DNA of 46,161 nt, taken from a plasmid. Where the stretch lies: NCBI RefSeq assembly GCF_054482595.1, contig NZ_JBTHVH010000006.1; one strand, given 5' to 3'. Shown in pieces: positions 34,201 through 37,200 of the stretch. The position numbers are program-made. Each line of letters begins with the position of its first letter. The stretch's first letter is position 1.

Positions 34201-37200
34201 TGGTGTGTCGCCTTCCATGCCCTGCCGGGCATCATGGAGCCAGCGGCGGAGGTTACTCATTCTTTCCCGGTTTGCCCGGCTGGGACTTTTTCCCCTGTTA
34301 CCGCTTAGTATACTCCAGACTCTTAACCCGGCCTCGTTAGTCCAGTGCAATACAATTTCCCCTTTGCTGTTAAATCCCAGCGAAAACCGGACAGCTCCCC
34401 GCCTCTGTTCTGCACTGATAAAATCTAAAAACTCCTGTTTTTTCATAGCACCTCCTGTTTTTCTATCAGTGCTTTTGTTTCTTTCTTTTCCAGGGCTTTT
34501 CTGAGTAATGCCATGTACTCAGGAAAAGCAGAGAATGGCATCAAGGGAAAAACCGGACGCCCACCCTTTTCAACAGTCTGTATTGCTGATAACATGCGTT
34601 CCGACATTTTATATTCCTCGCGAGGGAATTGAGTGTCACGGTATCAGGTTGCCTCCACAACCTGATACCACCCCTAATTGATTAACTCCGCAGTTCTCTT
34701 ATCGCTTCATTTTTGGCTTCCTCCAGTTCTTTAAGGGTATATGCGAAATTCTTCCAGTTAATTACTTCGTTTATAACCTCAGATTTACTTAAACCACACT
34801 CATTAAACCAAAAGTTAATATTTTTCTTGAGGGAATTTTTCGCCGTCAGTTCCTCGGACAACAATTCACTAACAGACGTGATAACATAACCACGACCGCG
34901 ATTTTTATCTTCGAAAGAATGAACGGCAAGGAAGAGAGTTTCTGAATGGACAAAAGCAGAGCAGGTGATTTTTTCTTTCTTAGTGTTTAAAGCCTGGAAA
35001 GTGATAACATACGTGTTCATTTTAGTCTCCCGCCCGTTTGGGCTACTGGATCATGGTAAGGAACTATTCCCGACCTACAAATAAATTATACCATCATATG
35101 ATGGTAATGCAATTTATTTAGTCACTTTATCCTGATTTTTTTCTCTCTTAACGAGCTGGTAATCTGGATGTTCATCAGCCAGGAGCAAAAGTAATTCATA
35201 CGTACCAGCGGCTAAACCACGAGACGTTTTACCGGATGTTTCTTTGGCTTGCCAGGCTGATAACGTAAAACCAAACCGTTCAGCGGCTTCCTGCTGCGTA
35301 AAGCCAGCTTTAATACGTGCTTGTTTCACCTCTTCAGGTGTTGGCTTAAAACTCATGATTTTGTACCTTCACAATAGTATCTGTATAGAATTTCAATAAA
35401 ATTGGATCATCAATTTCATCTTTAACGTTCGAGAATTCTTCGTAATAAAATGATTTTTGGAAAACAATCTTTTTAGTTGTTTTTTTATCCGCTTCTTTAG
35501 AGCGTACCTTCATCAGTTTTTCAAGTTCAATAAACAAACGTGTTGCATCTTCAGACACAACAATCCTGTATGTTACATTACCTTTGTTTTTCCTGTCGCT
35601 CAGGACTTCATTCATTTTTTGCCTCATAGCTGTTTAATAAACCCCGCTACCTTTATGAGCTGATCTACACTCAGGCCACGAATTACCATTTCATATCCGT
35701 CGCCCCGTTCTGATACGTTACCATCTAACCCATTCTCAACTTTAAACCCGGTCAATGTCCCATGCCAGCTTTCAAGATGCACTAAACGAGATAGCATTCC
35801 TTTCAGGATCAGTTTTTTCTCGCGTTTTTGCTGTAACTGTTGTTCATACTCTCGCGCCATATCTACATTATCTAAAGCATCCGACAGGATTTTCTTTTCA
35901 ATATCGGCGGCGATTTCTACAGGGTTACGCTCTGGCGATACTGTGCAAGTATGGTAAGGACTTCTCCAGCTGCGACTATCTACGCTTCCAATGATAACTA
36001 ACCTTCCTTTCTCCATTCGAATATGTATAGAGTAATTTTTAAAATCAGGTGAGGTTAGCTTAATCCTGTACTGGCAATCATCGAGCAGATTTACACGCCA
36101 GCCGTTCCCCAGGATTCGACAAACGATTTCAAACACCGGTTTATACCGTTCAAAGAAATTTTTCTGTTCTTTCATCGATTCAGCCTTTTGAACTCAATAA
36201 AAAAGCCGTAAATCGAATTACGGCAGTTTTAAGACTATTCATCAAAGTGTCCATCATCACTTGCAGCTTCCTGGGCTTCGCATTCCTGCTGATATGCTTC
36301 TTCCTTCGCAAAAAGATGCGCCCATCCTTCTGCGTTTAAGCCACGGTGCAAGACTGAACCATTTTCATTGCATTCTTTGGCTGTAACTTCGATCTCATCC
36401 GGGCAAATGTAGGCTCCGTAACTTTCAAAAATGTTTATCAGCTCCGCTTCCGTTATGGTCTTGTTTTTCATCAACGTGTCTCCGAATCAATCTTTGCCAT
36501 GTTCTAGGGGGCTTTCGCCCCCATTCCGGTTATGCGCTTGCTTCTACACGTGTCCAGCCTGACGCCTTACGTTTACCCGCTGTACCATACATTTCACGAA
36601 TTTCTTCAATGCTGTGTTCTTTACGGTTCCAGCGGCTTTTGTGTTCTTCAGGACGGTAAAACCATTGTTTTTTCTTAGATGCCCACTTACAGCCCATTTC
36701 CTTTAAAATGTCTTTGTGTTCTTTAGTTTCTCCGCTAATCCAGACCCAATTACCAATAACTTCATAGACAATCCCTGTAAGGCCGGAAAGCGTATTCAGA
36801 ACTTTTTCCAGATCTTCACCGTAGTTGTAACGTGCGTTTTCATCAGTGCTTTGAAACTGATTGATTTTATCAATGTTAGCCATGAGAAAATCAAACGCAG
36901 CATTTACTGCTTTCATCAGCTCGGCACCCAATGGATTGCGGTCTGGATGATATTTTAAAGCCGCTTTTTTGTATGCCGCCTTGATGTCCTTTTCAGTCAG
37001 ATCACCGGATAAACCAAAAACGTTTAATGCTTCCTGAATATTCATTTTTCGCTCCCGCCCGTGTGGGCTTCTGGAATCTGGCAGGGAACCATTCCCAACC
37101 AACAAATTCATTATACCATCAAATGATGGTTATGGAATCATTTTTAATGCTTTACATTGTAAAGATTACATAAAGATGTATATTGCTTTACCGCGCATGA

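Follow-up and report, generated by a model that had tools for sequence, protein, structure and literature searches.

A conserved J-domain/HTH module of IncX and IncI2 plasmids as a probable zygotically induced establishment operon

The antitoxin MqsA binds a promoter palindrome as a dimer, and its C-terminal helix-turn-helix (HTH) domain is the closest described relative by sequence of one protein of the plasmid locus analysed here. The same locus resembles the HigBA and RelBE modules in being plasmid-borne and in possessing two small overlapping genes, the first for a putative toxin and the second for an XRE-type HTH protein. A 'toxin-antitoxin-like' stability system of IncX4 plasmids, TsxAB, has reportedly been described by Bustamante and Iredell in 2019 and may be the same gene pair. 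In anti-CRISPR/Aca operons, found on mobile elements as well as in leading regions, small effector genes are likewise followed by an HTH autorepressor that acts on inverted repeats in the promoter. Finally, the zygotically induced genes of F, ColIb-P9 and the IncW/IncN plasmids (psiB, ssb, ardA; ArdK-type repressors) lie beside oriT on the early-entry side, have the T-strand as template and are subject to negative feedback, as we propose for the present genes. Here, we describe a computational analysis of this locus. With a probability of roughly 0.55, we consider it to be the distal part of a conserved, zygotically induced and HTH-autorepressed establishment operon of IncX/IncI2 conjugative plasmids.

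The window, by which we mean the whole stretch of DNA analysed, is a complete IncX3 blaNDM plasmid of 46,161 bp. Four genes encoding proteins of 79, 183, 93 and 80 aa had been grouped in an earlier note as a cassette with overlaps of 4 and 11 nt. These reading frames are real and all lie on the minus strand (Table 1); hundreds to thousands of plasmid records contain conserved homologues of each. The 4-nt overlap (ATGA) joins the 183- and 93-aa genes and the 11-nt overlap the 93- and 80-aa genes, and 59 nt separate the 79-aa gene from the 183-aa gene. The four genes are not the natural unit. That unit consists of the J-domain gene followed by the 183-aa, 93-aa and HTH genes, a module conserved in IncX1/3/4/5/8 and IncI2 into which the 79-aa gene is inserted at a variable slot. 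The 79-aa gene is absent from IncX1, X4, X5 and IncI2, its homologues are confined to plasmid contigs of IncX3 size, and in IncX8 an unrelated 68-aa gene holds its slot. The tight coupling ascribed to the last two genes is borne out, an overlap of 4-14 nt being retained in every complete locus checked, and this pair is the tightest core of the module. The upstream genes in Arsenophonus and IncL are tentative relatives only.

Table 1. Features of the module and its surroundings; gene lengths are given in amino acids (aa)
Feature	Position	Strand	Remarks
Probable oriT core	33883..33941	plus	24-nt inverted repeat (33883-33906 / 33910-33933), then nic motif (33934-33941)
virBR	34189..34446	minus	85 aa; last gene of second operon, downstream of P2
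54-aa ORF	34443..34607	minus	between 112-aa gene and virBR; 4-nt overlap with virBR
112-aa gene	34682..35020	minus	first behind promoter copy P2
Promoter copy P2	35021..35113	minus	-35-like TTGCAT, palindrome, extended -10, two-hairpin leader, SD GGGAG
P2 palindrome	35106..35089	minus	18 bp, TACCATCATATGATGGTA; overlaps extended -10 TGGTATAAT
80-aa gene	35356..35114	minus	XRE/MqsA-C-terminal-type HTH protein, YajA family
93-aa (or 89-aa) gene	35627..35346	minus	basic protein, YajB family
183-aa gene	36175..35624	minus	two-domain protein
Terminator-like hairpin with T-run	36224..36205	minus	between 79-aa and 183-aa genes
79-aa gene	36474..36235	minus	very acidic protein, variable slot
J-domain gene	37045..36530	minus	171 aa, counted from the ATG behind the conserved leader
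Promoter copy P1	37046..37140	minus	palindrome AACCATCATTTGATGGT overlapping TGGTATAAT (37131..37110)

The module is flanked by two copies of one control region, P1 and P2, which are conserved over about 100 nt through the Shine-Dalgarno sequence (SD) and the ATG and share the same leader hairpins and SD. The motif TACCATCAnnTGATGGTATAAT has exactly two matches in 46 kb, where none is expected; its two positions are upstream of the J-domain gene and immediately behind the stop codon of the HTH gene. From the P1-operator the operon runs through the genes for the J-domain protein, the 79-aa insert and the 183-aa, 93-aa and HTH proteins, and neither a promoter nor a palindrome is present between the 183-aa and 93-aa genes. 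Both copies were read by eye as extended -10 promoters, and a promoter scanner flagged neither because their -35 boxes are weak. The leader hairpins were taken from single-sequence folds, hairpin 1 being misaligned in a MAFFT alignment of the leaders, and an Rfam scan of 33000-38400 returned only a chance-level miRNA match on a hairpin. The second operon, behind P2, ends in virBR, an assignment for which the length and residues R20, R42 and R67 agree with the published protein, an activator of the T4SS (type IV secretion system) promoter PactX (PMC11214620).

The two-copy layout recurs in IncX1, X5, X4, X8, IncI2, pO177B3 and a metagenomic relative, that is, in every group for which both flanks were checked. 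The palindromes themselves differ between groups, being ATACGAC-N6-GTCGTAT in IncX4, ATACGCC-N6-GGCGTAT in IncX8, ATACATCTA-N2-TAGATGTAT in IncI2, ATACCTGCA-N2-TGCAGGTAT in pO177B3 and ATACAGCCG-N2-...GGCTGTAT in L017, and the pattern of a palindrome over the -10 is common to them, as is the conserved hairpin leader of each promoter copy. Across seven plasmid groups the palindrome changes together with the recognition helix of the HTH protein; in X4 and X8 the helix is nearly identical and so is the half-site. This co-variation is consistent with the HTH protein as the binder of the operator. Alternatively, the palindrome could be a binding site for the 93-aa protein or for a complex between the 93-aa and HTH proteins.

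A probable oriT core lies between taxA/ddp1 and virBR, upstream of taxA. Its inverted repeat is directly followed by an RP4-type nic motif, TATCCTG/C, which we take to be nic by analogy with RP4; the motif is matched 8 times in the window, where chance would give 4.5. Read on the plus strand, the motif implies that the plus strand is transferred and that DNA above position 33941 enters the recipient first. With nic placed by this motif, the module would lie 1.2-3.1 kb into the leading region and the T-strand would be the template for every gene, all of them on the minus strand between 34189 and 37045. This orientation has been reported for leading-region genes, anti-defence genes included (PMC11541004). 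Unlike the leading regions of F, ColIb-P9 and IncW/IncN, the module has no ssb, psiB or ardA homologue and no Frpo-like long hairpin; it appears to be controlled by a duplicated double-strand promoter, an XRE-type operator and a structured mRNA leader.

The 80-aa protein had been called a clear XRE HTH protein. The kind is probably right, and its homologues are annotated at source as XRE-family or YajA, but the matches are statistically weak, with Pfam E-values of about 1e-3 (HTH_31, 2e-3; HTH_3, 8e-3; MqsA_antitoxin, 1.4e-3, below threshold). Other libraries returned the PHROG repressor phrog_7950 (1.8e-5) and the NCBIfam MqsA-HTH family (5e-4), likewise below threshold, as were the PDB matches 3fmy, 7t8i and 1r63 at E 0.06-0.95. 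The best sequence match, the MqsA C-terminal HTH (PDB 3fmy, 3gn5; PF15731; TIGR03830), extends over the helix that follows the HTH (LLLLAdEHP vs LLrvLDKHP) and lies below the family thresholds (E 5e-4 to 0.06). In contrast to MqsA, the protein has no extra domain of the zinc-binding, MqsR-binding N-terminal kind, and its partner is not MqsR-like. Caution is advised with 'MqsA-family antitoxin' as an automatic name.

The 79-, 183- and 93-aa proteins had no match in NCBIfam, PHROGs, PADLOC or Pfam, and PDB sequence searches were likewise null. The model of the 93-aa protein is confident (pLDDT 90.7), and its order, β-β-β-β-α-α, contains the β-β-β-β-α of a PUR repeat. Its top structural matches outside its own family are single-strand nucleic-acid binders of the PUR-alpha/DUF3276/PC4 kind, and the predicted fold is similar to those of the PUR-alpha, DUF3276 and PC4-Whirly proteins. 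RKNKGNVTY forms the hairpin motif of the family, and RKNKG within it is near-invariant. Judged by this predicted shape, the protein would be a small binder of nucleic acids of PUR-repeat-like type. At the level of sequence, Pfam PurA/DUF3276 matched 0 of 22 members of the family, and an hmmsearch of PDB sequences with the family found no Pur-alpha. A ribbon-helix-helix fold was also considered, the pattern VTYRIVVSED...ELEKLMKVR...TTKK being suggestive, and was rejected on the four-strand meander of the AF2 model.

For the 183-aa protein, the fold search proposed in the earlier note returned a secretion-chaperone/YbjN/PsiB-like N-terminal domain, predicted as an α-β-α sandwich of the T3SS chaperone/YbjN type. 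This domain is followed by a long helix and, at the C-terminus, by a second domain of four strands plus a helix, and the PsiB fold class links the protein to the leading-region genes of F and its counterparts. The 79/78-aa protein has a pI of 4.3 and a net charge of -13. An IS91-family element is tolerated at the 79-aa/183-aa junction, where the terminator-like hairpin lies. Hairpin and element together prompt one to ask how transcription reaches the 183-93-HTH genes, which counts against a one-operon model.

Published genetics bear directly on these genes. In pHNYX644, a plasmid of identical size encoding the same proteins, the HTH gene (rs00275, WP_000008707.1) was partially deleted with the 93-aa gene (rs00280) intact; the plasmid was maintained and transfer remained within 12-fold of wild type (PMC11880322). 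Deletions, full or partial, of the HTH (rs00275), 183-aa (rs00285) and 78-aa (rs00290) genes each changed transfer by less than 12-fold (PMC11880322). For rs00275, whose deletion is only partial, this change is the one phenotype reported, and it is slight if two promoters have lost their only repressor. In a transposon screen of an IncX4 plasmid, cds16, which we identified by its published primers as the homologue of the 183-aa gene, was flagged as contributing to transfer.

We infer from this layout that the 80-aa HTH protein, encoded last in the operon, binds as a dimer to the palindrome over the -10 of its own promoter P1 and to the identical copy in P2, which begins directly after its own stop codon and would drive the 112-aa gene, the 54-aa ORF and virBR. 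In an established host both promoters would be held down. In a recipient that lacks the repressor, P1 and P2 would fire briefly, as in zygotic induction, and then shut off, and the operon products would serve establishment. Among these, the J-domain protein presumably recruits host DnaK, the 183-aa protein would be an establishment product with a secretion-chaperone/PsiB-like domain, and the 93-aa protein, translationally coupled to the HTH protein, may act together with it or on the conserved leader.

The earlier note had suggested, from size and position, that the overlapping pair could be a HigB/RelE-type toxin with an HTH partner. In its present form this alternative would make the 93-aa protein a toxin of a new fold class, harmful for example through nucleic-acid binding, and the HTH protein its neutraliser and the repressor of the operon; the pair would then be the candidate IncX3 counterpart of TsxAB. 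The pair is indeed the most tightly conserved unit, in toxin-first order and overlapping in every complete locus examined, and its HTH resembles the DNA-binding domain of an antitoxin. In IncX4, YajB (83 aa) and YajA (75 aa) directly follow cds16, the 'antitoxin' gene tsxB takes no Tn5 insertions, and tsxA was flagged along with cds16, of which its authors deleted only the 5' part, as if sparing something downstream. Should tsxB be the homologue of the HTH gene, the pair would be toxin-antitoxin-like in IncX4, which would count against the repressor-operon model. That TsxAB corresponds to this pair is, however, only a possibility. The supplements of the PixR paper name neither tsxA nor tsxB, and the IncX3 and IncX4 proteins share 29% (partner) and 49% (HTH) identity. 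Moreover, whereas tsxB is free of insertions, a partial deletion of the IncX3 HTH gene beside an intact 93-aa gene had no reported harmful effect, which is unexpected for an antitoxin that restrains a lethal toxin (PMC11880322). The predicted fold argues in the same direction. No known toxin fold appeared among the structural matches of the 93-aa protein, whose four strands precede its helices, whereas the RelE-type microbial RNase fold places N-terminal helices on a 3-5-stranded antiparallel sheet. Nothing related to RelE, HigB or ParE was found for it in Pfam, NCBIfam, PADLOC or PDB, and hhalign of its family profile with the RelE/ParE toxins of pHI4320 and an IncX1 plasmid gave a probability of 0.1%. 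A classical addiction pair is unlikely because the predicted shape is of the nucleic-acid-binding, PUR-like type rather than that of RelE/HigB. The layout also differs from that of HigBA and RelBE, as the candidate operator stands 2 kb upstream of the pair, before the J-domain gene of a five-gene operon, and recurs before another operon. The HTH protein lacks a toxin-binding domain of the MqsA N-terminal kind, the module is a syntenic backbone element and not a patchy mobile pair, and these plasmids carry other bona fide toxin-antitoxin systems, with RelE/ParE and HicAB lying separately beside the module in sibling plasmids. We therefore regard a toxin-antitoxin-like pair as unlikely.

The addiction or anti-defence module suggested in the earlier note fits the location, the genes being placed in the predicted leading region. 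For anti-defence genes, such a position with the T-strand as template has been reported (PMC11541004). Under an anti-defence reading, one or more of the 79-, 183- and 93-aa proteins would inhibit a recipient defence or the SOS response, and the HTH protein would limit their expression as an Aca-type regulator. An HTH gene at the end of an operon with a promoter palindrome is the Acr-Aca layout, a distant relative of the 93-aa/HTH pair adjoins an ArdC-N/DUF3560 gene, the 183-aa N-terminal domain falls in the PsiB fold class, and the acidity of the 79-aa protein and its variable slot are often seen in DNA-mimic-type inhibitors. Yet the proteins match no PADLOC, PHROG anti-defence, NCBIfam or Pfam family and resemble no known Acr or Aca family. 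In Acr-Aca operons the effector varies and Aca is kept, whereas here conservation of the 93-aa partner equals that of the HTH protein and is strongest in a basic hairpin of nucleic-acid-binding type. The same operator also precedes a second operon, the last gene of which is virBR, for the conjugation activator. The small effects of single deletions on transfer into laboratory E. coli (PMC11880322) also count against this reading, although that recipient may lack the relevant defence. On balance, an anti-defence operon seems to us somewhat less likely still than a toxin-antitoxin-like pair.

Worldwide, blaNDM-5 is carried chiefly by IncX3 plasmids of exactly this 46,161-bp type, and mcr-1 chiefly by IncX4 and IncI2 plasmids, which share the module; in thousands of records the module is annotated as 'hypothetical'. 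If the establishment operon under a single small repressor is real, it would provide a mechanism for establishment in new hosts, and the operator/repressor pair would be a possible target for blocking establishment or forcing toxic derepression. It would also offer a candidate answer to a point left open in the virBR papers, in which virBR is apparently silent in laboratory cultures without a known inducing signal. A bolder proposal, to which we give a low probability, is that the HTH protein and its PUR-like partner form an entry switch common to the main NDM-5 (IncX3) and mcr-1 (IncX4, IncI2) carriers. With no repressor on arrival, P1 would express the J-domain and 183-aa proteins and P2 would express virBR, the counter-silencer of the T4SS promoter, so that fresh transconjugants would be transiently hyper-conjugative. 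The PUR-like protein may bind the SD-sequestering leader hairpins, either as RNA or as transferred single-stranded DNA. Such binding would add a second layer of control, independent of the variable operator; the hairpins are as conserved as RKNKG.

Two of the start codons are uncertain. The first gene gives 79 aa from a TTG and 78 aa from the RefSeq ATG one codon inside. RefSeq gives the third gene 93 aa or, from Met5, 89 aa; the latter start has a GAGG Shine-Dalgarno sequence 6 nt upstream and turns the 4-nt overlap of the 183- and 93-aa genes into an 8-nt gap. Shortened or frameshifted variants of the 93-aa protein in the databases have the appearance of alternative start calls and of homopolymer errors in sequencing, and were not taken as a sign of dispensability.

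The best-supported reading of this locus is an early operon of the plasmid leading region that would be autorepressed by its helix-turn-helix (HTH) protein. The gene order J-domain, 183 aa, PUR-like (93 aa) and HTH (80 aa) is common to IncX1, X3, X4, X5, X8 and IncI2 plasmids, and at its innermost core are the PUR-like and HTH genes, with an overlap of 4-14 nt. In pO177B3 and in two metagenomic contigs the core stands on its own, with neither the J-domain nor the 183-aa gene; it adjoins an ArdC-N gene in one of these contigs and a replication gene in the other. The four open reading frames of the earlier note, their lengths and their 4- and 11-nt overlaps were all confirmed, and its coupled gene pair with an HTH regulator is real; the profile hits of the 80-aa protein are consistent with the HTH assignment, although they lie below threshold. 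The cassette boundaries drawn there, however, should shift to take in the J-domain gene and both copies of a duplicated promoter. The first gene has a possible alternative start one codon downstream (ATG, 78 aa). The third has one at Met5 (89 aa, the commonest homologue length) with a GAGG Shine-Dalgarno sequence, and its ATGA-overlap start is the start in use in IncX4 and IncI2. Between the 79- and 183-aa genes lie 59 nt that hold a terminator-like hairpin.

Hundreds of IncX3 plasmids, many with a length of exactly 46,161 bp, match the 2.6 kb around the locus at 100% identity. In the annotated record NZ_CP021692.1 a plus-strand gene for a pir-type replication initiator is followed, on the minus strand, by genes for DnaJ-domain, 78/79-aa, 183-aa, 89/93-aa, 80-aa, 112-aa, ~50-aa and 85-aa proteins, ddp1/taxA and a MobP1 relaxase. 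The 85-aa product is VirBR, a published activator of the T4SS promoter (PMC11214620).

A stretch of approximately 100 nt that precedes the J-domain gene (P1) recurs right after the HTH stop codon, before the 112-aa gene (P2). In each copy the −35 is weak, and a palindrome of 18 bp, TACCATCA-N2-TGATGGTA, runs into an extended −10, TGGTATAAT, after which come a leader and GGGAG-N-ATG. The palindrome motif has exactly two matches in the plasmid against 0 expected, and in each further group whose two flanks were checked the module is bracketed by this two-copy layout. The palindrome sequence is conserved in IncX1 and X5 and differs in other groups, the outer bases (A)TAC...GTA(T) being common to all. 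Plasmids of X3, X1 and X5 have both recognition helix and operator in common, and the helices of X4 and X8 are nearly identical (VGLRTWQKKE vs VGIRTWQKKE), as are their half-sites. This co-variation is the main, indirect, support for binding of the palindrome by the HTH protein; the PUR-like partner co-varies too and is therefore also a possible binder.

Features of the module and of compared loci (coordinates are those of the window unless a locus is named)
Feature	Position	Strand	Remarks
79-aa gene	36474..36235	minus	
183-aa gene	36175..35624	minus	
93-aa gene	35627..35346	minus	
80-aa (HTH) gene	35356..35114	minus	
Leader behind P1	37046-37109	minus	two hairpins
Leader behind P2	35021-35084	minus	two hairpins
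12-bp hairpin	34626-34680	minus	GGTATCAGGTTG...CAACCTGATACC; strong, no T-run
virBR (85 aa)	34446..34189	minus	length, R20, R42 and R67 all as in PMC11214620
Probable oriT core	33883-33941	plus	24-nt inverted repeat, then directly TATCCTGC (RP4-type nic-like motif TATCCTG|C); upstream of taxA/ddp1
IncX4 palindrome			ATACGAC-N6-GTCGTAT; within 300-nt repeat, 100% identical
IncX8 palindrome			ATACGCC-N6-GGCGTAT
IncI2 palindrome			ATACATCTA-N2-TAGATGTAT
pO177B3 palindrome			ATACCTGCA-N2-TGCAGGTAT
Palindrome of metagenomic relative (L017)			ATACAGCCG-N2-...GGCTGTAT
42-nt GC-rich element, IncI2 (L009)	4639-4680, 6861-6902, 7721-7762		GGGCGATGTGGCCCCGCTG...TTTCGCCC
Hairpin, IncX4 (L004)	4239-4268		similar to 12-bp hairpin
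Locus with HTH fusion, IncL pOXA-48-type (L005)	2990-3968		
IS91-family insertion, pUCLAKPC2 (L007)	1877-3623		

Conservation across groups is seen in the leader but not in the operator. Of 13 leaders folded as single sequences, 12 gave the same two hairpins, and between plasmid groups the stems differ in a compensatory way (GGGAA/UUCCC, AGGAA/UUCCU and GAAAGGGAA/UUCCUUUUC; GCCC/GGGC vs GUCC/GGAC in IncI2). A short upstream UUCC-type stretch is predicted to pair with the Shine-Dalgarno GGGAG in 9 of the 13. The leader could serve in translational control or be bound by the PUR-like protein. A separate hairpin of 12 bp lies between the 112-aa gene and a 54-aa ORF; Rfam returned only a chance-level miRNA match for it, and the similar IncX4 hairpin is 3' of the gene corresponding to the 112-aa gene. 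The IncI2 42-nt element stands upstream of both promoter copies and, as a third copy, before hicAB; it also occurs within the IncX4 repeat.

For the 93-aa protein, searches of Pfam, NCBIfam, PHROGs, PADLOC and PDB sequences gave no match, and its family is small: 94 clusters at 90% identity, nearly all on plasmid-sized contigs of ~30-46 kb, and only 27 representatives at 50% identity when 1.8 billion sequences were searched with a profile. In its confident AlphaFold2 model (pLDDT 90.7) two helices follow four long antiparallel strands, and in a Foldseek search of AFDB50 DUF3276, PUR-alpha/beta/gamma and PC4 rank directly after its own family. Conservation within the family is highest in a basic hairpin with glycine, [RK]K[NS][KR]G[ND]xx[YF], and in a K-T-T-K turn, a pattern that points to binding of nucleic acid and not to catalysis. 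The RelE/HigB toxin proposed in the earlier note is contradicted by this predicted fold, by the absent family matches and by a profile probability of 0.1% against genuine RelE/ParE toxins of sibling IncX plasmids. Canonical toxin-antitoxin systems (RelE/ParE with antidote, HicAB) do lie 1-2 kb or less from the module in siblings (L003 4601-5123, L011 4449-5031, L004 4532-5124, L013 1670-2352); none is present at the corresponding spot of the IncX3 window.

A toxin-antitoxin-like pair of another kind retains some weight from IncX4 data. Bustamante and Iredell reportedly described TsxAB in 2019 as a 'toxin-antitoxin-like' stability system. The IncX4 HTH partner (83 aa, MRKNKGDVTY...) shows distant homology to the 93-aa protein (hhalign E 5e-5). 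We suspect that TsxAB is the IncX4 version of the PUR-like/HTH pair. In an IncX4 transposon screen only pir, mcr-1 and 'the antitoxin gene tsxB' were free of insertions, and 'tsxA' and cds16 came out as contributors to transfer (PMC8725589); the primers used to delete cds16 fall in the 183-aa homologue, immediately upstream of the pair. On the other side stands the deletion study by Yang et al. (PMC11880322) of pHNYX644, a plasmid of 46,161 bp with the same RefSeq proteins as the window (rs00275, HTH; rs00280, 93 aa; rs00285, 183 aa; rs00290, 78 aa). Mutants of rs00260, rs00270, rs00275, rs00285 and rs00290 were all obtained, with transfer changed <12-fold; deletions were partial at overlapping genes and rs00280 was left undeleted (PMC11880322). 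Loss of the HTH gene is thus tolerated with the 93-aa gene in place, which speaks against a classical toxin-antitoxin relation.

RP4-type origins of transfer have an inverted repeat directly before TATCCTG|C, and the corresponding site upstream of taxA/ddp1 is a probable oriT core; the assignment rests on context, because the nic motif by itself is not significant (8 matches vs 4.5 expected). If so, the plus strand would be transferred 5' to 3' from 33941, and virBR, the 112-aa, HTH, 93-, 183- and 79-aa genes and the J-domain gene would enter in that order, the transferred strand being the template of them all. The same template orientation is reported for anti-defence, SSB and toxin-antitoxin genes of leading regions (PMC11541004). 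An anti-defence operon would fit this location and is compatible with it, but has no direct support. In the autorepressed early operon favored here, the second promoter copy, which heads an operon ending in virBR, would also be under HTH repression. This would account for the apparent silence of virBR in established laboratory cultures (PMC11915502).

Among plasmid records, 3,926 carry a homologue of the HTH protein and 2,067 carry the 183-aa backbone protein, whose model (pLDDT 92.5) shows two domains connected by a long helix. The slot between the J-domain and 183-aa genes is variable, being empty in IncX1, X4, X5 and IncI2 and occupied by an unrelated 68-aa gene in IncX8. In IncX3 the slot holds the very acidic 79-aa protein (pI 4.3, net charge −13), which has no family matches and has homologues in only 22 clusters, all from IncX3-sized contigs; in size, charge and position it resembles small DNA-mimic anti-defence proteins. 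In pUCLAKPC2, an otherwise identical and evidently viable IncX3 plasmid, an IS91-family element between the 79- and 183-aa genes cuts the 183-93-HTH genes off from P1.

The gene upstream of HTH in Arsenophonus (118 aa) and in IncL pOXA-48-type plasmids (168 aa) is a tentative relative, the likeness being by eye only. In the IncL locus, 3' of parM/parR and a PLD nuclease gene, the HTH member has two HTH domains fused in tandem (159 aa) and overlaps the upstream 168-aa gene, whose C-terminal part resembles the same strand meander. NZ_OR345924.1, recorded as a complete circular plasmid, holds exactly the IncX4 J-domain, 180-aa, 83-aa and HTH genes and one copy of the 300-nt repeat, with no replication gene. 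Its 2,080 bp equal the spacing of the two IncX4 repeats (L004 1100-3479), and the record represents either a circle that recombination between the repeats has excised or an artefact of assembly. The longest ddp1 ORF (204 aa, start 33917) would overlap the putative oriT core; the RefSeq start is 33848. Finally, window 1-3000 has a GC content of 61-67%, vs about 40-50% elsewhere, and is probably part of an acquired resistance region.
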